DNA from: a virus | Lineage: Duplodnaviria > Heunggongvirae > Uroviricota > Caudoviricetes | DNA length: 64,000 nucleotides | Reading direction: 5' to 3' (one strand) | IMG/VR virus record: IMGVR_UViG_3300049919_000267 | Location: 38,379 to 102,378 of that record | Part shown: positions 1 to 60,391 of the stretch, piece by piece | Position numbering within the stretch: position 1 is the stretch's first letter | Layout of the letters: each line of letters starts with the position of its first letter | The notes under the pieces: generated by a model | Seen by the model: only the letters and a program-made list of their open reading frames with translations | Databases searched by the model: none | Told to the model about the DNA's origin: nothing | Made by a program: the position numbers and the translations under genes

Positions 1-3000
1 TCACCACTTATATCAGATTGCCCATCATTTGAAGATTGATTATATGCTGTAATAATACTATCAGAAGTTTCTGTATAAACATCAGCAATTCTTTTCTTTA
101 CTGTATTTACATTATTCCAATCTCCAGGGATAGTTTCAGGGATAGAATTTAAAAAATTCTTAATTTTATTAAGATCATCTATTCTATCTTTTAATTCTCT
201 TTGAATATTTGCAAGATCTTGTAATGAATCATATTGTGGTTTTACAACAAAATCACCATTCTGGTCAATATCATAATATTTATCATTAAATCTGTCATCA
301 TCTGGCATAAATTCAAATATAGATGCAACAAAGTTATATTCTTCCTGAACAGCATCTATCTGATCATCTACTAAATTTTTATCTTTATTTTCAATTACAA
401 TAGGTTTACCATTGTAATTATCTGTAATTCTTTTTAATTCAGATGTAAATTCATTTGTAGACAAATCTCTTTCAAGTAATGCGGAAATTTCGGCCAGTAA
501 CTTCTGACCATTAATATCTGCAAGAATTGTTTGAACTTTACCTTGGATTCTGATAGCTTTTAAAAGTTTTTCCTCATTAGCTTTATATTTTTTAGTAGTA
601 ACAATCTTATTAGGATCTTTACTAAAAAGTTTAAGTTTTCTTTGCCCAAGAGAATTATCTTTATTTGCAACTTCTCTTTGAAAATAAGTATTATAAGCAT
701 TATAACTTAAAGACATTCTTCTAGAGAGAAGAGTCTCAGGTCTTTCAGCTTTAGTTTTTTCCTCTTTAAGAGCAGCGGTTAATTTCCATTCATCTTCAAT
801 CCAACCTTTTTGAATACCAATTTCTTCTCTTTTAATAGCATTGATTCTTCTTTGTTTTTCATTATCTAATGCTTCTAAATCTAAAGCATTATTATCTTTC
901 TCTGGGGCTTTTGGTTGTACATAGAAGTTAGTATCTTCTTCGCCACCAACTAATTCAAAAGCTGAATTATTATTCATAAAAGCATCTCTCTGAGATGTTA
1001 ATTCATCTAATTCAGATTGGAGCTTGTTTATCTTCTCAAGAGTTTCCTGAGTTTTTAACAGGTTAAAACCTAATAAAGTACCATTATTAGCTTTAGACCT
1101 GTTATTAAAGTCTTGAGCTTTTGGTGAATTCCTTTCTTTAGAAAGCATACTATCCCAATGATATGCAAATTCTTTCTGAAGAACTTCAATTTGATTTTTT
1201 AATGCTGGAATTCTTGCATTAAAATTTCTAGATACTGAAGCAAATGGTACTGAATAATCAGTTACCGGGATACCATTTTCATCCAATATAGAACTCAAAA
1301 TTTCAAGAGATGGCTCACCTAAAGCTGTTTCACTGTCAGTAATTTCATCTAAGTAAATATCTAACAAAGCATTTTGCATTGCAAGTCCTCTGAGATAAGC
1401 TTTCTTAGCTTCGAACTCTTTACTTCTTTTTTCTTTTTGAGCTTTAGAATATTTTAAACCAAAATATCCTTCTCTTGTTTCAGATACATTATCTAAAACA
1501 TTATTTTCAATCCATGTATCTGACTTAGAAAGTCTTTCAACAATCTTAGTCATTTTAGCTAACATCTCTTTCTTCTCTCCGGGTTTCATATTACCTGGTT
1601 CATAACCAAGGGCTTGAATATCCTTATCAGAAAAATTAGAAGAAGAAGTTAGATTAGCAAGTAATAAATCTTTCTTACCTGCTTTAATATATTCCATAGC
1701 AAGTTGTGTAAACAACACATTTCTTGCTAATTTATTTAATTCTTTATTTTGATATGTACTATTATTTTTATCTGTTGGATCTTCAGTATTTTGAATAACA
1801 TCCATTATTCCTTGAATATTATTCATTTTATTCAAGAAATCCTGAAGCTTTTTTTGATCTAATAAAGGTTGCCCTGTCTTAGGATCAGTTAATATTGTTT
1901 CTACTGGTTTTGTTTTTGTAGGATCAGAAGGATCTGGCCTCTCTTCAACTTTTGTTTGATAGAAGTGTTGAGACTCAAATAAATTAGTAGTTGCTGCATT
2001 TAATCTATCATTCCAATATTTATCTACTTTAGCTTGTTGTCTGGCTCCAAGGCTGGCATGTATAATACCGCCACCAACACCAAAAAGACCACCTATACCA
2101 ATAGATTTAGATAATTCATCATCTACAAATCTATCGTCCCCAGCTCCTTTAAAAAATTGTTTTGTTTGAGAGATATATCTCTTACCTACACTACCAAAAA
2201 TTTCATCTTCTTTTTGAAGTTTGTTTACATTTTCTTCACTTGTCCCTGGTCTGTAAAACTCATCATCAGCACCAAACTTTTCATTAGCAGTTCTTGATAT
2301 AGCTAACTGAATGTTTTCCTCAAAAAGACCTTCTGATAGAAAACCAAGAGTAGCAACAGAGCCAACTTTCCAAATATTTTTAAGAGCCGAAGTTTTATCA
2401 TAACTTGTACCTGAACTTAAATTTCCAAGTTTAGATCTAACAGCAGCACTAGCCTTTCCCCCAGCAGTTTCAGCAGTTGCAGCAGACTTACTTAAAAGTC
2501 CTTTTGCATATTTACCAATTCTGTTAAACACTAAAGTTTCTAAAAATTTAGGGCCAATTAAAATAGTCATATTCTGCTTAAATACTTCAGCAGCACCAGC
2601 AGCAGATAATCTTTCTTTTTCTTCAGTTGTATAATAGTACCCGGTTTCAGGATTAATTCTTCCTTCAAAAGATCCGTATATTTTTTGTTTAACTTCGTTA
2701 GCTTCCACAGCAGATTCAATTACAGTTGTAGCTAATGTTTGTGCAGTTAAATCTACTGCATTTTTAACAAGAGCATTTCCTGTACTTTCAACACCTAAAA
2801 AGTTCATTGTTCTTTGCAGACCAGTTTTCCCTACTTGTGCAGCAGTTAAAGCTTCTGTAGAAACTCCTTTCGCTAGAGGAGAAAGTCTTGAAGCTACTTT
2901 GGTTCCAAGTCCAAGTTTTGATATTAGACCTACTTCAAAAGCAGCAGATACAAGAAACCCCAAGCCATCACTAACATCATTCATCCAAAAATCACCATCA

Positions 3001-6956: not shown

Positions 6957-9900
6957 TTATTGTTGACTTAAACTTTTATACTTACCAAGATGAGGCATAG
7001 ACTCAATAATATCTGCATAGGAAGCTCCTTTTTTCATAGCTTCTCTAGCCTTAATAATATCATCTAAATCTGAATTATTTATTTCAGTCTTACTCTCAGT
7101 ACCATCTTTTGAAGTTTTCTTAATTATTTTGTCTACTCCCTGTTGAGCTGCCATAAGTCCAAATTGTTGAGCTTCTCCTTCATTAAACTTCTGCACAACA
7201 TTATCAGGATTAAAAGTAACATTCCCTTTTTTGTCAAATCCATAATGCTTAAATAGGTTTGCATAAGCATTGTAAGTTTTATTTTCCAAATTATTTTGAA
7301 GTACTTTACCTGAAATACTGGTAAATGCAGCCATACCTTCTTTTCTTGTATTAAATTGAGCTTGAGCTTGTCTATTCTGTTGATCAGCAATAAGGGCCAA
7401 ATTCTTAATTCTGGCATCATTTAAAACATCCACATTCTGTCCATACACACCAAGCTTTTGAGTAGCATTACCCTGAATCTCTTGCATATTATAAGCCTCA
7501 TCTGCTTTATATTTTTGAGCTGCAAGCTGACTTAAAGCATCAATATTACCAGTTTGTTCAGCTATCTTAGCTACTTGATTGAAAGAAGATTGATTTTCAT
7601 TTCTACCAAGTTGATAACTTAAATCAAAAGTTTGCTTTAATTCTGGTTGATAACTCTGCCTAAATACAGGCTCCTGTTTGTTTGTAGCTATTGTGAGAAG
7701 TTCAGGAGCTATTTGTTCAAGAGCTAATGGAGATAAAAATCCTCTTTCTCTGCCACCACTTCCAATATTTACCTTATCTGAGAATGTTGTAGGATTTTTA
7801 TTTGCCTTACCATACTGTGTATCTACAGAAGGATCTATCTCAGTTATTGGTGCATATTTTGGTTGAAAATCGTTAGTAGTCACTGTATTTGTTTGTGTTG
7901 TTTTTGTTGTTTGAGTTGGAGTATTTGTAGCTGCATAACCATTTCCACTACCATAATGAGATAAAAATTTTTTAACATATACATTACCAGTGGTTCCAAG
8001 ATCATCTTTAGCACTACCACCTGCTGAAGTAGGTCTACCAGTAAACCAAACAGAAGCTACATCTTGAGCATTATTATGTTTACTATAAATTTTCTTCATT
8101 TGAAATGTAGCAATTTTATCTTGTAAGGCTTCACTATTTAAAAATTCCTCTTCAGTAACCTCTTTACCAAGTGCTTCTTTTGACCACTCTTTTAAATTTC
8201 CCGGCATAATTTGATATTTACCAAGGGCTTTTTGTCCCTTATATCTACCTTTTGTCACTTGTGGGCCTTTTATTTTGTAATCTCCGGAACTTTCAATTGC
8301 TGCAATAGCCTTTGCAATCTTTTGAATATCTTCTTCATCTCCAGGAACAGTGCCACCATTAGCCATAACTCTACCACCATATTCCATCTTATCTGAATTT
8401 GAATCTAATAAGCCTAAAATAATATTCTGATAGGAAGCTAGTGCTTCTTTTTTCTCAACAATTTGTTTAGATTGATTATCAAGAGATTGAAACATAACTT
8501 TTGCAGTAGAGATAGCACTTTGTTGATACGTATCTGCTACATTAGCTTTATTTAATATAGTTAAATACTTTTCTTTAGTTCTATCAACTTTACTCTCTTC
8601 TTTAGCAATATCTTTTGCTACATTTCTAAAAGTCTTATTAGTACCAGGCAGTTTCAACTTACCAAATATATTTAACCCACCCTCTTGATCTATAAATCCA
8701 ACTTCTTTATTTTCAACTTCAGCTATTTTTTGGCCATATTGAATTCCTATACCACCTTCTTTATGTTCTTTACCTACAAATTCAATCATTGGATTAGAAT
8801 GATCAGAGTTAGATAAAGTTTTAGTTTTACCACCATCAGTAATCTGAAGTTGGTTATCACCTTCAAGTGATCCACCATTTTTCATAATAGCTTGAGATCC
8901 TGTACCTTCTAGATAAGGATTAATACTAGGGGTAAAAAGTTCATCCATAATAGACTTTCTATTATTTTTTCTATTTTCTTTATTTGCTTGATTTTTACCT
9001 AAGAATGAATTTAAAGCAGTCATTCCAGTACTTGCTAACATCTCTACTTGATTCTTAGTTTCATCTCTTTTATTAGATGTCATAAGATTATCAGCAGATA
9101 CTTTATCTGCAAGTGTTTGTTGAGCTTCCGGAGTAGTTGTTTCACCATCATTATTTACATATTTACCAGTACCCTCCAGTTGTTTATTCCCATTTTTACC
9201 ATCTACAACATCATAGTATTGGGATAATGGAATTATATCAGGTTGTTGTGATACATTTCCTTTTTGATCTACTCTAAAAATTTGTTGTTCTTTTGTATTA
9301 TCCGGATGAAGAGGATTTTGTTGTTGAATATTTTGAAATATATCAATTCCAGTATTTTTAACATTTTTTAATTCTTCAGGATCTTCAGGGCCAACTTCAC
9401 CACCTAAAGCAAAGTATCCTTCATTCTCAAGAACATTTTTATTTTGAAGTCTTCTTTGTACATTAGTATAAATACTACCATAAGAAGCTGGCTTAAAAGA
9501 TGGATCTAAAAATTTATCATCTTTTAAATACCCTTTTTCATTATAAGAAGAAATCATTTTTTGCATATTACCAATACCACCATTATACCCAGCAAGAGTA
9601 AAAAAGTCTCTTTGTTTATCAGAGAATTTTAAATTCTGTGCTTTTTCATATGTAGATAGTCTATCTTGAGTATCTCTAATCATAGCAGCTTTAGCAATAA
9701 GAGCATCCTGATCTGTTGCAAATGCAGCAGTTTTAATTTTCTCTTTCTTTTCATTTAATGCTTCATAAGGAGTAAATCTATTGGTAAAATCCTTTGGAAG
9801 ATAGCCTTTATCTATTAAACCTTGATAATTTTCACCAAATCTATCAAGACCATAGTTATAAAAACCATCCACTTTGTATTGACCAGCAAGTTTTGAATTC

Positions 9901-29323: not shown

Positions 29324-30874
29324 TTAGAAGCTAGGAACTTCTTTAATAATTACACATCTACTAAGATCTTCAATGAATACATCTGCTCTGTCTTTCATCC
29401 AGATTGTATACCAAGGATCTTTATTAGCAGAACTCATACCTTGAGATTTAGCAAAACCTAAGTGATGAACTGCACCATCAACATAACCCCAAGTCATAGA
29501 AGGTCTAGATTTCATTCTTACCTGTCTGATATTATTTTGAAGACTACCATCTCCTGTTGGAGATACGTCAAACACCATAAAGATAGGAGTTGATTTCTTA
29601 TTTTGACCAATCTCTAAGTTTGTATTAGGAAGATCAAGTTGTCTTAAATGTACCAGGTCAATTCTACCAGTATCAGAAGTGATTACAGAATCAAAAGCAT
29701 AAGATACAGTCATATTCTGACCACTACCTTGGATGAATCTATTATCAGCAATAACAGTAAGACCAGAATTTAACAGATCTTCTTTATTAGCTTTCTTGAA
29801 GATTTCAAAACCAGCTTCATTAGTGTAGATCTTAACTCTACGATCTTTGATGTCAACTCTACGATAGAACAAATCACCAAATACATCTCTTAACAATTGG
29901 ATGTTAAATTCACCTCTGTTATAATAAACAGTGTTACCATTGTTTAACATTTTATGATAGATACCACTTGAAGCTTTTTTAATTTCTTGTTTGCTGTTTC
30001 TATCTTTAGCAGTACCAGGTCTACCCCAGATCATGTATGCAGTTTTCATGTCATACATTTTCTTTCTCATCAGATACTCAACGTAAGGTTCCCATCTGAT
30101 GTCAGCACTCATATGCTCAGGTAAAGCCCCTCTGCGTACATTACCATAAACCATAAGGTCTAGTGCATTTCCTTTTCCGTCTCTCAGCATTCTTGCATCA
30201 GCCCAATCAGTAATAGAATGTTCCACACCAAAACCAGCACCAAGAGATTCAAATAATGTAATCTCACTACCCATTGAAGGTAAACCAGATAAATCAGTTG
30301 TAAACTCTCCTACTAAGTTAAACAGGAATTCAAATTCAACACCAACAGAGAAAAACTTGCTGTGTATAAAATCCACTTTAGGATTTTCAGACAGAATAGT
30401 GAAGGTGTACAACCAACCACTATTATAAGGAACTGGATCTTTAACTACACTTAAAGGAGTAGATAATTCCATTTTTTGTGATGTAATAACATCATTTAAA
30501 ACCCACTCTTTCCTGTCAAATACAAGAGAGAATTCTTGCTGATCAATACCAGCTTTTTCAAGCAATAGTGTTTCTTCAGGGATCTCAATTACTTTAGGAA
30601 ATTCATAAGGAACATTGATCTTCCATTTGAAAGCATCACTGTTACTATCAATAAAGTAAGGTGTGGACTTATCCAACATTTGTTGGAAGTCATTAGCATA
30701 AAGTTGCGTTTGGGTATACAGACTTATGATTTTTTTATCATAATCAGCAGGATCAGTCAAATGAAGACTTTCAAGGTGATTAGAGTCAGTAAACTTACCA
30801 ATAGATCTCTTGTCCAAAGAGGACACTCTCGTTGCAGCAAAACCAGTAAAGCCCGGTATAGTTTGTAAAGGCAT
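29324..30874 (-). CDS. Major capsid protein candidate (516 aa)
   Basis: Sits in the canonical order TerL - portal - acidic scaffold-like - this ORF. Size and mixed alpha/beta composition are compatible with an HK97-fold MCP. Assignment is by synteny only. Confidence 0.5.
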   Translation of the reverse strand: MPLQTIPGFTGFAATRVSSLDKRSIGKFTDSNHLESLHLTDPADYDKKIISLYTQTQLYANDFQQMLDKSTPYFIDSNSDAFKWKINVPYEFPKVIEIPEETLLLEKAGIDQQEFSLVFDRKEWVLNDVITSQKMELSTPLSVVKDPVPYNSGWLYTFTILSENPKVDFIHSKFFSVGVEFEFLFNLVGEFTTDLSGLPSMGSEITLFESLGAGFGVEHSITDWADARMLRDGKGNALDLMVYGNVRRGALPEHMSADIRWEPYVEYLMRKKMYDMKTAYMIWGRPGTAKDRNSKQEIKKASSGIYHKMLNNGNTVYYNRGEFNIQLLRDVFGDLFYRRVDIKDRRVKIYTNEAGFEIFKKANKEDLLNSGLTVIADNRFIQGSGQNMTVSYAFDSVITSDTGRIDLVHLRQLDLPNTNLEIGQNKKSTPIFMVFDVSPTGDGSLQNNIRQVRMKSRPSMTWGYVDGAVHHLGFAKSQGMSSANKDPWYTIWMKDRADVFIEDLSRCVIIKEVPSF

Positions 30875-43251: not shown

Positions 43252-43611
43252 ATGGCAAAAGTAGCAACACAACCACAAACAAAGGTTATTGAAACAGTAA
43301 AAGTATCAAAAAGTACAAAAGCCACAATTGAAAAGGCAATAGGTCGCCAATTGGGTAGCCCTATTAATAACAAAGGCGAGGGCGAAGAATTTGAAGTAAC
43401 CTTAACAGGGGATATTCAAATAAGAGAATTTCAACAAGTGAAAGGGGCTTATCTTACAACTAAGGAAGGATACAGCATCAAAGTTAATGCAAGTTTTGAT
43501 CCTTTGAAACATAAAGAAAACGCAGTATTAACAGCGAAATGTGTAGTTCTTCCGAAGAATGAAGAATTAGGAATCACACGGGATGTAAAATATTGTGTTT
43601 TTGTTGATTAA
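43252..43611 (+). CDS. Hypothetical protein (119 aa), first gene of the rightward arm
   Basis: ORF track. Followed by a strong terminator. Confidence 0.6.
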   Translation: MAKVATQPQTKVIETVKVSKSTKATIEKAIGRQLGSPINNKGEGEEFEVTLTGDIQIREFQQVKGAYLTTKEGYSIKVNASFDPLKHKENAVLTAKCVVLPKNEELGITRDVKYCVFVD

Positions 43612-43630
43612 TTGTAAAAATACAAAAATA

Positions 43631-43672
43631 AACAGATATATATTCTCCCGACAGAGTATATATCTGTTTTTC
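43631..43672 (+). terminator. Rho-independent terminator
   Basis: Perfect 12-bp stem AACAGATATATA / TATATATCTGTT with a 14-nt loop, followed by TTTTCT. Confidence 0.7.
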
Positions 43673-43864
43673 TATGTTGCTAAAGATATTTTTTTGTAAT
43701 AGATTACGACTTAAGGTCGTGAAATTGAATAAGTTACGACTTATGTTCCATGTGGAACATATTTTTGTTGAGAAATATATAAATAAAGGTGTATTCTTTT
43801 ATTGGGTTTTTGGAGGTATTGAGAGACAATGAAGATTTAATAACACATAAATAAATAATAGCTT

Positions 43865-45071: not shown

Positions 45072-45536
45072 ATGCTCAAACAAATATTACTTGTAATGTG
45101 TATTAGTTTTCTGTTTAACACAATACAGGCTCAAAACCATACTAAATGGTATAAAATAACAGAAAACGATTTGATTGTCATGTCATTACAATCAATATCA
45201 GGAGTTGCTGATGGTGTAAATCAAGCCATTGTTCATCATAAATATGGGAAAGGTAAACAGTTCTGGGATAATAAAGTCTCATGGACTAATAAATATGATA
45301 TGCCAAGCAGAGATCCAAAATTCTTTGGTTCAACCACATTTTTAGTGTGGGTAACAGATGGATTCCATTTAACAAGAATGATAGATAGAACTACATCTAT
45401 TGTTTCAATTGGAATTTCATTTGCTGAACTCAGGGAATATGACAAAAAAGACATTTGGAAGGTAATAATGAAGAAAGTTCTATTATCATACCTGGTAAAC
45501 AGAACTGCATTTGTTATTACATATAATAACTTGTAA
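45072..45536 (+). CDS. Secreted hypothetical protein (154 aa, signal peptide)
   Basis: MLKQILLVMCISFLFNTIQAQ signal-peptide-like N-terminus. Confidence 0.55.
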   Translation: MLKQILLVMCISFLFNTIQAQNHTKWYKITENDLIVMSLQSISGVADGVNQAIVHHKYGKGKQFWDNKVSWTNKYDMPSRDPKFFGSTTFLVWVTDGFHLTRMIDRTTSIVSIGISFAELREYDKKDIWKVIMKKVLLSYLVNRTAFVITYNNL

Positions 45537-45570: not shown

Positions 45571-45900
45571 ATGAAGAAACAAAAAATTACGAGCAATGAA
45601 ATGAAATCATTAATTAGCTCAAGAAAACAACAAATACATATTTATCATGCTATTCAAGATGATAAAATGTTTACAGAAATTGAACAACAACCCCGAAAAT
45701 ATATTGGGTTTATTCATGCAGAAACCTTAGAACAAGCTTATAATTTATGTCAAAATGACAATCTTCATCCTGATTACTTATATTATAATGTAAGATCATT
45801 ATCAGTTGGTGATATGTTATTAATAGGACATGAATTTTATATGGTTTGCAATTTAGGTTTTAGAATGATATGTTCCTTCAGTAATGAAGGTGAAGAATAG
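45571..45900 (+). CDS. Hypothetical protein (109 aa); start moved to the ATG after a GGAGG RBS
   Basis: …ttggaggtattATGAAGAAAC… The ORF-track start at 45511 is upstream and probably a non-ATG start. Confidence 0.5.
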   Translation: MKKQKITSNEMKSLISSRKQQIHIYHAIQDDKMFTEIEQQPRKYIGFIHAETLEQAYNLCQNDNLHPDYLYYNVRSLSVGDMLLIGHEFYMVCNLGFRMICSFSNEGEE

Positions 45901-46600
45901 GTGTTTTTCATAGGTTAGCCAACAACGGGCTGAGTTTATACTTGGCCCTCTTTTAAATCTTTCTAGTTAATCATTGACCCAAACACTATTGTATGCAGAG
46001 CAACCTAGGTGTGTGACGGACTGCATAGTGATTAACTAGTTATTAATAATTTAAAACAATTGTAATGACAATCTGTGTAAGAGTATCTTTGGCTATCACC
46101 AAAGCGTCAGCAAGTTACAGTTGTTTTGAACTAAGTTTGTTCTGTACTTTGGTAATGCATTACCTTAAACAGGGCTATTGGGTAAGCTGCCCAACTTGAT
46201 TGGAGAGGAACACTAATATCTATCTTGTAATCTAGAGATACAAGCTGGTAATTGGGAAACCAAGTCATGCTATATTAGCAATTCCAATGTAGGCTCATAT
46301 ACCTGAATGTGTATGTATTGTAATATTTAACATAGTTATTTCTATGGCTGCAAATTTTCATTTGTTGAACAATAAAATATTACAATAATTATCACTGTGA
46401 GAATCAGTGACATAGAGAATAGAAGGACATAATTCCATGTTAGAAGGAGTCCATTATATTCTCTTGGGGCTTATATTCTTGATATTAATAGAATACAGAC
46501 AAAGGTAGACTCAAACTTAAATGTGAGTAACTGGTGGACACTATTAATAATCAAGGTATTAGTGCGTAATAAATTAAACTTAAAAAACAAATATATTATT

Positions 46601-46918
46601 ATGAAAGATATTTTTTTTAATTGGAAGCTTACTATAATATTTTTTCTTATTGCACACCTTTTTATGTTAATTATTGCAATATCTAAAACATCACAAAAAC
46701 ATCAATGTATTGATGAAACACACCAAACATGTGATGGTAATTGTGAATGTGATGGGATAGAATGTGATACACATTATCATAATGGTCAAGAGTGCCAATA
46801 TGAAGGATTAGAATGTCCTATATTATCAAAGACTTTAAATCTTATTGTAGTGTTATCTTCAGACTACAATACCTCCAACCAACAGAGGATGAAATACTCC
46901 TTTGTTGGTTATTTTTAA
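46601..46918 (+). CDS. Small membrane-anchored Cys-rich protein (105 aa)
   Basis: ATG at 46601 (MKDIFFNWKLTIIFFLIAHLFMLIIAI…), then …CIDETHQTCDGNCECDGIECDTHYHNGQECQYEGLEC…. Confidence 0.45.
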   Translation: MKDIFFNWKLTIIFFLIAHLFMLIIAISKTSQKHQCIDETHQTCDGNCECDGIECDTHYHNGQECQYEGLECPILSKTLNLIVVLSSDYNTSNQQRMKYSFVGYF

Positions 46919-47921
46919 CTTTATTCATATTATTATGTAATTAATTCAGCCAATGTATTGGTGCAGACACTTGCAGACCTTTAATAAGGATAAAAGATGA
47001 GCCAGGAAATATTCCATCTGCAAACTGGTCAGGTAATACACTTATTGTTATTAATGACAATAATGCCTGATGTTATTTAAATTTTGTAAATTACCACTGT
47101 CGTGGAATTGTGTAATACCATTGAAGACCCAATGATTGTAACCAACAATCAAATGCTAAACTATGTTGTATTCATATAAAAAGCCTTTAATAAGAACTAT
47201 TAGAGGCTATATTATTATAGATATAAAGACATATCTCACTTTGATTTAGGGAAAAATTGATGTACTTATCCCTTTGATTTAGGTACAGTTGAGTTCAAAA
47301 GTGTAAATAGAACTTAATTAGCTGTTGTAAGATTATGACGATATGAGTACATTGCAGCACCAAAAAAAGTTTACACAATTGTTAGTTAATATTAGTGCAT
47401 TTAATGAACAAAACAATTATCCAATGAAATTATCTAAAAGTTATTGCAAGAACTAAGATACATATCAGAGAAATAAAAAACAAAAAGAAGCAAAAAATCC
47501 GAAATGTTAATTAATGTTTAACAGAATGCAACATTGTAGTGTATTAGAATGAATATACATAATGACCTGTTTTATCTTAATTTCGGAATATATACATGAT
47601 TAACATTTTAAACTGAAAAGTCTAAGATGCTCATGTAATTGTCCAATTGAACAGCCCTGAAACAAACTAGCCAAGAGGAACTCTCGTTAGATTGTTAAGG
47701 GCTGTTTTTTATTTTGATTATAATATTATCTATTATATTTTAAGAGCCTTTGTTGAGCATGGTGGATAGAGTCTGGGAGTACATGGTTACCAATCATGTA
47801 CATACTGTCAGACATAACAGTAGAAAAAAGGGGGAAAAGTAGAGCATGTAATGTGAATACAACTTTTGTCCCGGACTTTATTATTAAAACTAATTTAAAA
47901 CAACAATAAAAAACAAAAAAC

Positions 47922-48458
47922 ATGAAACACATAGTATTATTTATATTACTTATTCTTCTTGTATTAGCTACAGGAAGATCTCAAGCATATCTTGATTGTA
48001 ATGTTGGAGTTATTTCTGGTTATAACAATCAAATAGTAGGGGGTGTTCAGGTTCCTCATCCTACTTATGTATTATTTAAAGATATTGTAGAACCTGTAAG
48101 AAAAACAAGTCTAAATGTTTCTTTATCAGGAGGTTATATGTTTAATCATTTAACTGTCTTTGGTACATTAATAAGACCTTTAGATAGTACTAATCCAACC
48201 ATGATTAATGGAAGTATTGGATGGGTATTCATTAATAGGGACAGTTATGAAAATAAAATAGGACTTCAACCTTCTTTAGGATATACTCAATACTTGAATG
48301 ATAATAATGATATTGGTGGTTCTCTAAATGGAGGAATTCAACTTCAATTTTGGAAAGTTGCAGCTATAGAAGGACACAAAATCTTTTATATTGATTATAA
48401 ATACCAATATAAGCATCATATCTTTGGAATAGGTATGAAGTTTAGTAATAGGTTATAA
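47922..48458 (+). CDS. Signal-peptide protein with outer-membrane beta-barrel-like features (178 aa)
   Basis: N-terminal MKHIVLFILLILLVLATGRSQA, alternating hydrophobic beta-strand pattern, Gly/Asn/Tyr-rich. Aromatic-rich C-terminal region (…GIGMKFSNRL). Confidence 0.5.
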   Translation: MKHIVLFILLILLVLATGRSQAYLDCNVGVISGYNNQIVGGVQVPHPTYVLFKDIVEPVRKTSLNVSLSGGYMFNHLTVFGTLIRPLDSTNPTMINGSIGWVFINRDSYENKIGLQPSLGYTQYLNDNNDIGGSLNGGIQLQFWKVAAIEGHKIFYIDYKYQYKHHIFGIGMKFSNRL

Positions 48459-48813
48459 AATATTGCTGTTGACGAAAACTTAACAGTGAGTATCAACAGT
48501 ATTACAAGAGTAGCTGATTATATTATGCTGTAATCAGCTATCTCTTGTATCAATTTACAAATCAGGGAACAAAATTCACTGGACGTAGTTGGATCAACCC
48601 AACACACTTAGTTGGTGGTATAAGTGACCATAAACAGTGTACCTGATTATTAATGATAGGATATTGAGGAGTCATAGCTTAAAATAAACTATATAAATAT
48701 TTTAAGAAAGGTTATCAAACGAGACTTAATTAAGAAGGGAGAAAAAAAATGGTAGTTAACGCCTTACTTCTGTCCTTAATATTTATCAATTATTATTTAA
48801 TAAACCCAAAAAT

Positions 48814-49302
48814 ATGAATACATTAATATTAACAATAATATTGTTTTTTACACAAGAACTTAGATGGACTGAATCTGTTCTTACAAAAGAAAATTTTAAA
48901 ACTGTTACACCTAAAGAAAGTAATGAATTAGCAAAAATATACACTGGTATTGGTATTAATATTAATTATAATCAAACTGGTAAAGGGAGGGCTTATGCTT
49001 ATATGGATGAACAAAAAAGTGAATTAAGAGCTGATTTATTATATAATAATACTAATAAGCTGAATGAAACACTTATACATGAAAAAGGACATTTTGATCT
49101 TACTGAATGGATTGTAAGATGTCTAAATAGAGAACTTAAAAATATTACTGAAATAAGTATTATATATAAGCTTTTGTATAAGTATAATGATCAGCTTAAT
49201 TATTGGCAAAAAATATATGATACTGAAACAGATCATAGTAATAATAAAGAGAATCAAAAAATTTGGAATGAAAAGATAAGAAAACTATTATTAAATTTTT
49301 AA
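48814..49302 (+). CDS. Secreted putative Zn-metallopeptidase (HEKGH motif), DUF922-like (162 aa)
   Basis: Signal-like N-terminus and …TLIHEKGHFDLTEW… (HExxH). Confidence 0.45.
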   Translation: MNTLILTIILFFTQELRWTESVLTKENFKTVTPKESNELAKIYTGIGININYNQTGKGRAYAYMDEQKSELRADLLYNNTNKLNETLIHEKGHFDLTEWIVRCLNRELKNITEISIIYKLLYKYNDQLNYWQKIYDTETDHSNNKENQKIWNEKIRKLLLNF

Positions 49303-54675: not shown

Positions 54676-54762
54676 TTTCTATTGGCTGAGAGGATTAAGG
54701 CAAGGGGTATTGAATCCCCTGACTTCGGAAGAAGTCCAAGAGTTCGAATCTCTTATAGAAAA
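54676..54762 (+). tRNA. tRNA-Ser (UGA), type II with a long variable arm
   Basis: TTTCTAT / ATAGAAA acceptor stem, anticodon loop AUUGAAU, variable arm GACTTC-GGAA-GAAGTC, T-arm AAGAG-TTCGAAT-CTCTT. The D-arm is short with a G·U pair. Boundaries are about ±2 nt. Confidence 0.6.
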
Positions 54763-54798
54763 CAAGTTTTGCTGCATTTTCCTTAGAAAAATCAGAGG

Positions 54799-55307: not shown

Positions 55308-55379
55308 ATTCCTGTGGCTTAATTGGTAGAGCATCCCCCTGAAAGGGGAAGGTTGTAGGTTCGAGTCCTACCAGGCATC
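55308..55379 (+). tRNA. tRNA-Phe-like (GAA) with stem mismatches
   Basis: D-arm GCTT…GAGC, anticodon loop CUGAAAG (GAA) on a CCCC/GGGG stem with a C·A mismatch, T-arm GTAGG-TTCGAGT-CCTAC. The acceptor stem has one T·C mismatch. An alternative fold gives a 6-nt anticodon loop. Confidence 0.45.
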
Positions 55380-55414
55380 CTGAATTATTTTTAATATAAA
55401 ACTTCAAATTCAAA

Positions 55415-56062: not shown

Positions 56063-56172
56063 TAAAAATCGGTTAGACTTTCTCTTCCAAGAAAAGTCAA
56101 GAAGCCTTCATCTCCCCAGAAGAAAGTGATTTCTTCTGGGGAAGGTGGAGGACATCTTATTAATAAAAAGTA

Positions 56173-56209
56173 AAAACCCCTAAGAATTAATTTACTTAGG
56201 GGTTTTTCT
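56173..56209 (+). terminator. Rho-independent terminator (bidirectional-looking)
   Basis: AAAAACCCCTAAG-loop-CTTAGGGGTTTTT. Preceded at 56114..56141 by a perfect 12-bp hairpin CCCCAGAAGAAA-GTGA-TTTCTTCTGGGG. Confidence 0.65.
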
Positions 56210-56232
56210 TAAGTTTTAAATACTAATTTAAT

Positions 56233-56306
56233 GAATTGGTAGCTCAGTTGAATAGAGCATCAGCCTTCTAAGCTGAGGGTCATAGGTTTGAATCCTATCC
56301 AGTTCA
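56233..56306 (+). tRNA. tRNA-Arg (UCU)
   Basis: GAATTGG / CCAGTTC acceptor stem, D-arm GCTC…GAGC, anticodon stem TCAGC/GCTGA with loop CUUCUAA, T-arm ATAGG-TTTGAAT-CCTAT. Confidence 0.7.
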
Positions 56307-59831: not shown

Positions 59832-60232
59832 GGGTCTGACAGGCATTTGACAGCAATGGATTGGAATTATGGGTATGCAGGGAGAATGATTCTATACTTC
59901 CTTGATAAATGTGAATCAAATCTAGATGTAGAAGTATCTAACATCACCGTAGGTGCAGAAGGAAACATTGATAGCTTATTAGCTTCTTTGTCTTATTCAG
60001 TTGAGTCTGAGCTTGCTCTGGCTTAATTCACCCCCAGAACTCTATGGGTATAAATGAGAACTTTTTCTTTTGGTATATTCTTCAAATAAGAATCTACTCT
60101 GAATATTAACCTGGCTTAACAGTAAATTAGCTAAAGGCCTTTGGAGCAGTAGGACTGCTATCCTAAGCATATAAGTCAACCATAATTACTTTACAATGTA
60201 TGGACAAGGGTTCGACTCCCTTCAGATCCACC
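59832..60232 (+). ncRNA. ssrA: tmRNA (ssrA-like transfer-messenger RNA), apparently phage-encoded
   Basis: The 5' GGGTCTG pairs with the 3' CAGATCC-A-CC. The 3' end GGACAAGGGTTCGACTCCCTTCAGATCCACC closely mirrors the E. coli tmRNA 3' end (GGACGCGGGTTCAACTCCCGCCAGCTCCACCA). An internal reading frame ends …SYSVESELALA-TAA at 60024-60026, with candidate resume codons GCA at 59955 or GCT at 59982. Length about 401 nt. Confidence 0.6.
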
Positions 60233-60307: not shown

Positions 60308-60391
60308 GGGCAAGTGGTGGAATTGGCAGACACACAAACTTCGATGTTTGTTCTTAACAGAGTATAGGTTCGAATCCTATTTTGTCCACCA
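60308..60391 (+). tRNA. Type II (long variable arm, Leu/Ser-like) tRNA with an aberrant anticodon loop. Isotype unresolved; CCA encoded.
   Basis: D-arm TGGTGGAATTGGCAGACAC (Leu-like), T-arm ATAGG-TTCGAAT-CCTAT, acceptor GGGCAAG / TTTGTCC (2 G·U), terminal ACCA. The anticodon region ACAAAC-TTCGAT-GTTTGT folds as a 5-bp stem with either a 6-nt loop (UUCGAU) or an 8-nt loop (CUUCGAUG), never a canonical 7-nt loop. Confidence 0.5.

Follow-up and report, generated by a model that had tools for sequence, protein, structure and literature searches.

A predicted hatchet-type ribozyme variant in a non-coding interval of a crAss-like phage

We analyzed the non-coding interval 45901-46600 in a 64,000-nt stretch of DNA (positions 38,379-102,378 of the IMG/VR virus record IMGVR_UViG_3300049919_000267, Caudoviricetes; hereafter, the window). 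The 3' part of this interval, positions 46316-46581 of the plus strand, is probably a new variant of the hatchet ribozyme, and its self-cleavage would separate an upstream RNA from a downstream mRNA; we assign this reading a probability of about 0.6. The unit is homologous to characterized hatchets, is conserved as non-coding sequence in related phages, shows base-pair covariation, and lies on the plus strand. Known hatchet ribozymes numbered about 210 in 2015, and we know of no biological role that has been assigned to them.

Homology to hatchet ribozymes

The Rfam Hatchet model (RF02678, gathering score 51 bits), applied at a relaxed threshold, produced two collinear matches in the interval. 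Positions 1-25 of the model correspond to 46388-46413 (AUUAUCACUGUGAGAAUCAGUGACA, nearly the consensus; 17.3 bits), and positions 32-128 correspond to 46465-46574 (20.6 bits). For comparison at the level of single residues, the enzyme strand of Ht-1 was rebuilt from published primers (PMC4604424), and the numbering of env10 (PMC6561176) was used. Two segments shared with Ht-1 and env10, U28-U39 (UGGGGCUUAUAU) and U56-C64 (UAUUAGUGC), are letter for letter those of Ht-1. These identical segments take in G30, the G31-C64 pair, G63, the extruded U35, U39, and U59. P1 and its loop match env10 residues as well, the loop sequence UGAGAAU being U7-U13 of the crystal structure, in which the extruded L3 residues U39 and U59 dock into L1 (PMC6561176).

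Hatchets cut at the 5' base of P1, between C(-1) and U1 (PMC4604424, PMC6561176), and the cleavage site predicted by homology in the window occupies the same place (Table 1). In approximately 90% of hatchets a non-conserved hairpin, P0, is found a few nucleotides 5' of the cleavage site (PMC4604424). The window has such a hairpin, with a 13-bp stem and a 4-nt spacer, and two of the related units described below (L039 and L050) carry P0 hairpins of unrelated sequence. The linker C20-A21-A22 is represented by CAU in the window and in the related loci L012 and L050, by CAA in L017, and by UAU in L039. In env10, activity was lost when C20-G30 was swapped to G20-C30, while a base analog was tolerated at A21 and A22. 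The family requires a purine at position 65, and the window has G there. The 3' tail GUAAUAAAUUAAACUU is the counterpart of the canonical 3' side of L2, AGACGUUAAAAC, without G66 and without P2b; the counterpart of A73-A75 is the A-rich UUAAAC, in an uncertain register.

The connection between P1 and the core is organized differently from that of the canonical ribozyme. In the Rfam consensus and in Ht-1, the five nucleotides after the CAA linker form P2 by pairing with the 3' end, enclosing L2, P3, and P4. In the env10 crystal, the end of P2 stacked under P1 is the G27-C77 pair, adjoining U28 (PMC6561176). In the window, P2 is replaced by a hairpin located between the P1 linker and U28, with its second strand immediately 5' of U28. 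We infer that the strand leading into U28 takes its partner from directly after the P1 linker, not from the 3' tail as in the canonical ribozyme, and P2 would therefore be a closed hairpin able to carry very large inserts. With this strand order the junction could be reassembled in a simpler form, in which the invariant AGAGA after the linker might stand in for the missing purines of A65-G66-A67. The insert is 35 nt long in the window and about 250 nt long, with a 72-aa open reading frame (ORF), in L039. The replacing helix is also present in L012, L017, and L039, each time with different inner helices.

Relatives and base-pair covariation

No close DNA relatives of the phage were found among GenBank phages. 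The search for relatives through the flanking proteins yielded none that were usable in IMG/VR, and the neighbor protein of the element in locus L012 matched only itself. Contigs with exactly the same flanking proteins represent the same phage and are 100% identical except for one 12-nt deletion (in locus L008); thus, they carry no information about covariation. Homologs of the 154-aa gene at 45072-45536 led to L012 (136 kb), which contains a non-coding homolog of 46129-46576 (nhmmer E 1.4e-26). Conserved blocks of the window-L012 alignment, used as exact search patterns, then matched L017 in Joint Genome Institute (JGI) metagenomes and L021, L039, L040, and L050 in IMG/VR; L017 is homologous to 46129-46581 (E 3.2e-16), also in a non-coding context. 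The matches comprise four further full units (L012, L017a, L039, and L050) and three core-only copies (L017b, L021, and L040). Since the genes flanking the element differ between the window, L012, and L017, what is retained is the non-coding element as such. Other homologs of the 154-aa gene are mostly on bacterial-looking contigs that lack the element. The 19-mer of conserved block C had no matches in IMG/VR, the matches of a 20-mer in GTDB genomes were chance ones inside coding sequence, and those of a 16-mer and of the P1 pattern were mostly due to chance.

All six P1 pairs form in 5/5 full members, which also share U1 and an invariant L1, UGAGAAU; U35, U39, and U59 are present in 8/8 cores. 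U28-G29-G30-G31, the G31-C64 pair, G63, and P3 with its G32-U62 wobble are as in Ht-1 in the window and in 7/8 cores. Pairing is preserved despite sequence change: in P0, five pairs are changed on both sides and a sixth on one side only (window, L012, and L017), two P1 pairs are changed on both sides (in L017 and L039), and in the zipped L3 together with P4 five pairs are changed on both sides across eight sequences. In the helices, 98-99% of the alignment cells are paired, compared to 27-49% in slid controls. Because the G32-U62 wobble is invariant in 8/8 and one-sided changes lead to U-G, the strand of the element is fixed as plus; P0 and P4 also contain U-G pairs.

When a covariance model derived from the eight cores was searched with speed filters off, the core in the window scored 104.7 bits and was the sole copy in 40-64 kb (next best, 15.6). 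The cores without a detectable P1 are L017b 667-795(-), L021:2449-2617(-), and L040:9444-9611(-), with 102-119 bits in this model; P1 was looked for in L021 and L040 and not found. An ATG follows the core after approximately 24 nt in L017b and 58 nt in L021, and the start codon of the downstream gene in the window lies 36 nt 3' of the core. No paralogs of 45901-46600 occur elsewhere in the window, no ribozymes or RNA families other than tRNAs and transfer-messenger RNA (tmRNA) were found in 43-64 kb, and GOLLD, ROOL, HEARO, and OLE gave no matches at E up to 10 either in 45700-46800 or in L012.

Two of the relatives have additional genes or ribozymes. In L017, an ORF for a GIY-YIG homing endonuclease (822-1535, encoded by the plus strand of L017, the strand opposite that of the element) is located between a complete compact hatchet-like unit and the second, P1-less core, which suggests that an endonuclease cassette entered L017 at the ribozyme. 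The L039 contig contains two Pistol ribozymes, at 7162-7226 and 8768-8842, one of them scoring 59.7 bits (threshold 34.5) and the other weaker, consistent with the clustering already described for self-cleaving ribozymes (PMC4604424).

Table 1. Features of the interval and its neighborhood (window coordinates unless a locus is given)
Feature	Coordinates	Strand	Basis and details
Hatchet-type ribozyme unit (predicted)	46316..46581	+	homology and covariation
P0 hairpin	46316..46387	+	13-bp perfect arms 46316-46328 / 46375-46387; ends 4 nt before P1
Predicted cleavage site	46391..46392	+	A46391 (-1) / U46392 (U1); homology only
P1, 6 bp, with loop L1 UGAGAAU	46392..46410	+	arms 46392-46397 / 46405-46410; L1 46398-46404
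Linker CAU	46411-46413	+	alignment of full members
Invariant AGAGA	46414-46418	+	alignment of full members
Local helix AGAGAAUA / UAUUCUCU	46414-46421 / 46457-46464	+	closes variable insert; in place of canonical P2
Hatchet core	46465..46565	+	5' side of L2, P3, L3, P4, U59, AGUGC
5' side of L2, UGGG	46465-46468	+	U28-G31
P3 and L3 in core	3' of UGGG	+	U35, three zipped pairs, U39
Long P4	from 46477	+	pairing in 8 sequences
U59 and AGUGC	core 3' side	+	U59 = 46560; G63 = 46564, C64 = 46565
A-rich 3' tail	46566..46581	+	UUAAAC at 46574-46579
Conserved multi-stem domain	46129..46315	+	homologous non-coding DNA at L012:3782-3994 and L017 1860-1726 (- strand)
Stem S1	46139-46145 / 46171-46177	+	around variable hairpin with 14-bp palindrome
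Stem S2	46179-46195	+	RNAalifold and minimum free energy (MFE) fold
Stem S3	46195-46205 / 46282-46293	+	around variable 46210-46281, including CTTGTA..TACAAG
Stem S4	46296-46302 / 46309-46315	+	RNAalifold and MFE fold
Conserved 20-nt box GGTGTTTTTCATAGGTTAGC	45900..45919	+	overlaps last stop-codon base of upstream gene
Terminator-like hairpin and U-rich tract	45927..45957	+	terminator scan; hairpin 45927-45948, 9 pairs
Phage-specific hairpin, 11-bp inverted repeat around 7-bp stem	45963..46039	+	inverted-repeat scan
Phage-specific imperfect hairpin, 19-nt arms, 84% complementary	46047..46133	+	inverted-repeat scan; in MFE fold
Upstream gene, 109 aa	45571..45900	+	ORF and gene calls
Downstream gene, 105 aa, membrane-like, Cys-rich	46601..46918	+	gene calls; called start ATG 46601
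Terminator	46877-46910	+	terminator scan
P2-replacing helix around 72-aa ORF (MKTITEV...)	L039:10806-11200

Composition of the interval and its phage setting

The interval 45901-46600 is a composite of four unrelated parts. At its 5' end, a box, a covarying terminator-like hairpin, and a U tract are conserved between the window (45900-45957), L011 (5249-5307), and L013 (977-998). Together they make up the 3' end of the upstream gene and its terminator. The box occurs in a single copy in the window, and an identical stretch of 18-22 nt is found at L011:5250 and L013:977-998, with 0 chance matches expected. In L011 and L013 the stem has another sequence with complementarity kept, followed by the conserved UUCUUUUAAA. 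This part could be a small RNA (sRNA) derived from the 3' untranslated region (UTR). The closest known system is the FopS sRNA of Bacteroidetes (RF04319), which 45901-45957 resembles in having a 5' GUGUUUUUCAU with a terminator hairpin and a U tract after it; GUGUUUUUCAU is complementary to AUGAAAAACAC, a start-codon region. It differs from FopS in that the middle of the model is missing and a promoter is not evident, and the match is not significant (19.8 bits versus the threshold of 56, E = 3). The following approximately 170 nt of AT-rich hairpins (45960-46128) have no counterpart in any fetched locus; apart from the first 57 nt of the interval, no homologous sequence was found 5' of 46129.

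The domain 46129-46315, immediately upstream of P0, is a separate RNA candidate without a known relative. It shares almost invariant blocks of 21-50 nt with L012 and L017, and the same four stems (S1-S4) were obtained by RNAalifold and by single-sequence MFE folding. Covariation is sparse: across S1-S4, both sides have changed in one pair and a single side in eight. The palindrome hairpin GGTAATGCATTACC is missing in L012 and is replaced by an unrelated hairpin in L017.

The initial annotation, made from the sequence alone, had described 45901-46600 as an ORF-free and highly structured segment with nested inverted repeats and elevated GC content. All five repeats that it listed exist, at positions shifted by 1-3 nt. 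The 11-bp inverted repeat (CTAGTTAATCA at 45963-45973 and TGATTAACTAG at 46029-46039) encloses the 7-bp stem TATGCAG (45992-45998) / CTGCATA (46021-46027); it lies outside the conserved element and has no homolog in any fetched locus. The 14-bp palindrome GGTAATGCATTACC is at 46151-46164; the stem CTTGTA (46224-46229) / TACAAG (46239-46244) closes a loop of 9 nt, one base shorter than had been given; and TCACTG-TGAGAAT-CAGTGA is the stem-loop of P1 and L1. The longest perfect stem, the 13-bp P0, had been overlooked. Apart from a mechanical GTG extension (46523) of the downstream gene, the interval indeed contains no ORF of at least 60 aa. Reading TAG or TGA as sense opens no frame for a hidden gene, each frame having 6-14 TAA codons, and the candidate pseudogene or small ORF 46065-46199 was rejected because an 11-nt indel, a gap run in the alignments with L012, falls inside it and speaks against conservation as a coding sequence. 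The GC content is higher than in the flanks, 0.37 at 45900-46199 versus approximately 0.27.

The description as highly structured holds to a moderate degree at the scale of 700 nt. The MFE of the plus strand is -181 kcal/mol (z = -4.3 with 20 shuffles and -4.0 with 40), which is 20 kcal/mol better than that of the minus strand (-160.6 kcal/mol). In 14 other 700-nt segments of the same genome the mean z is -1.7 (standard deviation 2.2), with lower values only in two segments containing tRNA genes. At the scale of 150 nt the interval is unremarkable (z from -2.7 to +0.3), and far stronger local structure exists elsewhere in the window. The z-scores of the individual parts are -3.5 for 46312-46580, -2.4 for 45955-46135, and -1.0 for 46129-46315, so that the fold of the last is not unusually stable. 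The 11-bp repeat is not the cause of the overall signal: it is AT-rich and adds little stability, and the 150-nt segment over it has z = -0.03. Very low 150-nt values elsewhere were observed at 48401-48550 (-9.0 on the plus and -5.0 on the minus strand), 49051-49200 (-6 and -8), and 43601-43750 (-4.9), all stronger than anything inside the interval.

Judged by the match of the ORF 29324-30871 (minus strand) to the Crassvirus major capsid family Crass_capsid (E 1.7e-29), the window is from a crAss-like phage. A flanking gene of the interval is found on contigs of up to 102 kb. At about 43 kb genes switch from the minus to the plus strand: the minus strand up to 43014 carries large genes, including the major capsid gene, and the plus strand from 43252 onward carries small genes, tRNAs, and a tmRNA. 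The upstream 109-aa gene had only a self-match among 5.8 billion proteins and thus has no homolog outside this phage. The downstream 105-aa gene gave weak matches limited to a hydrophobic segment (among 1.8 billion representative proteins). Homologs of the 154-aa gene occur on phage contigs and on bacterial-looking contigs, where they adjoin methyltransferase, flavodoxin, and histidine-kinase genes, suggesting a gene shared with the host.

Several other RNA features were observed in the window. A second conserved non-coding stretch, 47245-47894, lies inside the ORF-poor gap 46919-47921 and is homologous to the intergenic region L011:6560-7130 (nhmmer E 4e-21 and 8e-20). Its pairwise consensus fold contains a long stem with an inner hairpin changed on both sides, the local z is about -5 at 47601, and no Rfam match was found for it. 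At 56108-56215 (plus strand), immediately 5' of the tRNA-Arg gene at 56233, the RNA motifs His_leader and trpB are matched below threshold (approximately 37 bits, E 0.007 and 0.048). ARAGORN identified a phage tmRNA at 59832-60232 with the tag AEGNIDSLLASLSYSVESELALA, and three tRNAs with unassignable anticodon loops (54676-54763, 55308-55380, and 60308-60391), one of them read as the four-base 'tcga'.

Interpretation, alternatives, and known systems

The comparisons described above suggest a scenario for transcription, cleavage, and biological role of the element. The interval would be transcribed from the plus strand, co-directionally with the flanking genes, and P0 and P1 would fold during transcription, the local hairpin setting P1 beside the UGGGGC...UAGUGC core. 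The RNA would then cut itself between A46391 and U46392. In ribozymes with the cleavage site at their own 5' edge, the whole ribozyme stays on the downstream product, and the upstream RNA obtains a precise 3' end. Here, the 5' product would consist of the domain 46129-46315 and the stable P0 at its end, freed with a 2',3'-cyclic phosphate, while the mRNA of the downstream gene would keep a 5'-OH on a compactly folded 5' end. Thus, the fates of the two RNAs would be uncoupled.

A more specific version of this scenario is that the ribozyme is active with a previously undescribed connectivity, in which P2, closed as a hairpin, accommodates inserts the size of a gene and AGAGA replaces A65-G66-A67, and that it matures or releases the 3' end of the approximately 260-nt domain 46129-46391, the domain being a new phage non-coding RNA or a sensor that gates cleavage. 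Taken as a whole, this version is speculative, and we consider it unlikely.

A number of observations weigh against a cleaving hatchet. Some concern family membership: both Rfam matches stay far below the gathering score, and L012 and L050 gave no Rfam Hatchet matches at all. Others concern the junction. A partner for canonical P2 in the 3' tail was not found by eye in any member, and G66 is absent: the window has U at this position, and the relatives have either U or, as in L017a and L050, A; the G66A mutant of env10 is nearly inactive. A22 is U in the window and often in the relatives. In L050, the helix AUAGUAGCAC / GUGCUACUAU starts after AGAGA, which is left unpaired, and the UGGG stretch has only three G residues, one fewer. 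Position -1 is A in four members and G in L039, never C; this column is only weakly conserved in the Rfam consensus. The covariation comes from three to eight sequences, from which the structures themselves were derived. Expression of the element is a further difficulty: no convincing sigma-70-type promoter was found for it, and the terminator-like hairpin at 45927 lies upstream, so that the element needs read-through or its own promoter. A Bacteroidetes-style TAnnTTTG at 46133-46140, seen by eye, adjoins S1 and has no -33 partner.

The main alternative is that the unit descends from hatchets and no longer cuts, serving as a folded 5'-UTR or RNA-stability module that keeps the stable P3-L3-P4 helix and the P1/L1 docking and is placed just upstream of start codons. 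Three relatives retain the core without P1, directly upstream of the downstream sequence, and in these the core may serve a role other than cleavage. In L008, a contig of the same phage (JGI 3300048017), the 12-nt deletion corresponds to 46391-46402 and lies between short direct repeats; the 5' arm of P1 is lost with it, as is the predicted cleavage site. Over 2.7 kb no other difference exists, and the deletion suggests that P1 is dispensable. On the other hand, residues required solely for catalysis or for the fold of the active site (G30, G31-C64, G63, and the extruded U39 and U59) are invariant in 8/8 copies, the full L1 loop is retained in 5/5 units having P1, and the invariant AGAGA beside the junction could supply the missing purines. 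We therefore regard a non-cutting module as a doubtful alternative, albeit one with a real chance of being correct. Because of the tested departures from defining features, the unit is named a variant related to hatchets and is placed outside the Rfam family.

The remaining explanations are less probable. Location directly upstream of a start codon, and the long, nearly invariant blocks and multi-stem architecture of 46129-46315, would also be expected of a leader that controls the downstream gene in cis, for instance a riboswitch or an element bound by a protein; but the downstream genes in the window, L012, and L017 are unrelated, making a gene-specific regulator unlikely, and no meaningful match to riboswitch or leader families was found. 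Such a leader is improbable. The three candidates proposed in the initial annotation were a structured non-coding RNA, a replication origin, and an intron-like element. The first is supported for 46129-46581 because this segment is conserved as non-coding sequence between unrelated flanking genes, shows compensatory changes, and has hatchet homology at its 3' end. An action at the DNA level, as an origin, a recombination hotspot, or a homing-endonuclease target, could explain why the GIY-YIG gene of L017 sits inside a duplicated copy of the element, why the element is found between different genes in different phages like a mobile cassette, and why both strands fold better than shuffled sequences. 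Yet neither iterons nor repeat arrays are present, the direct repeats being limited to four short ones in two copies each; the cumulative GC-skew minimum is at about 43 kb, at the strand switch (42-50 kb profiled); and the interval is richer in GC than its flanks, and not in AT as expected of an unwinding element. Moreover, the G-U pairs, both those conserved and those arising by one-sided changes, can form only in plus-strand RNA, and identity to a characterized ribozyme explains the conservation. Thus, the data do not support an origin, and DNA-level action in general is very improbable. An intron-like element is likewise unsupported, as models of group I and group II introns gave no matches at E up to 10 and nothing in the two flanking genes, one without homologs and the other with weak hydrophobic matches, suggests exons of one gene.

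Chance hairpins of an AT-rich spacer or of a decayed gene would fit the absence of homologs of 45960-46128, the 150-nt z-scores near 0, and the modest z of 46129-46315. For 46129-46581, this explanation fails: the nhmmer matches to L012 and L017 lie in a non-coding context, covariation is present, and the indel in the sole small ORF argues against conserved coding. We give it hardly any credence for the interval.

If the cleaving-variant reading is correct, a natural variant that keeps P1 and the active-site residues of P3-L3-P4, with P2 rewired and G66 dropped, would show which parts of the fold are needed. Cases in which the predicted ribozyme contains or adjoins an ORF or a homing-endonuclease gene would mean that its fold can form from parts hundreds of nucleotides apart. 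The layout is consistent where seen: P0 ends the upstream RNA, and the predicted ribozyme stands tens of nucleotides before the next start codon. This suggests that hatchets in crAss-like phages cut polycistronic transcripts into units with protected ends.

Among known systems, the unit is closest to the hatchet itself (Ht-1 and env10; Weinberg 2015, Li 2015, Zheng 2019). Common features are (i) P0, a 6-bp P1 starting at U1, and L1; (ii) in the window, a linker beginning with CA, together with a P4 that is long and variable, a purine at residue 65, and an A-rich 3' strand with UUAAA(A)C; and (iii) location in crAss-like phage DNA between co-directional genes. According to a 2026 preprint, hatchets are largely confined to Crassvirales. 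The unit differs in the longer 3' strand of L2, which lacks the P2b anchor, and, together with its relatives, in the invariant AGAGA after the linker. A second parallel is provided by the 'theta' ribozymes, related to that of hepatitis delta virus (HDV), which reportedly lie next to tRNAs in gut phages. The phage setting, the polycistronic transcripts, and a cut at the 5' edge of the ribozyme are common to both; however, the folds are unrelated, the Rfam search of the region gave no HDV-like matches, and the upstream product in the window would be a conserved domain of about 260 nt, not a tRNA. Finally, permuted types of twister and hammerhead ribozymes likewise have the same catalytic core with a different connectivity of strands. 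Those are true circular permutations, whereas in the variant described here two adjacent elements, the P1-linker block and the 3' strand of P2, are swapped, with the original 3' strand left free.

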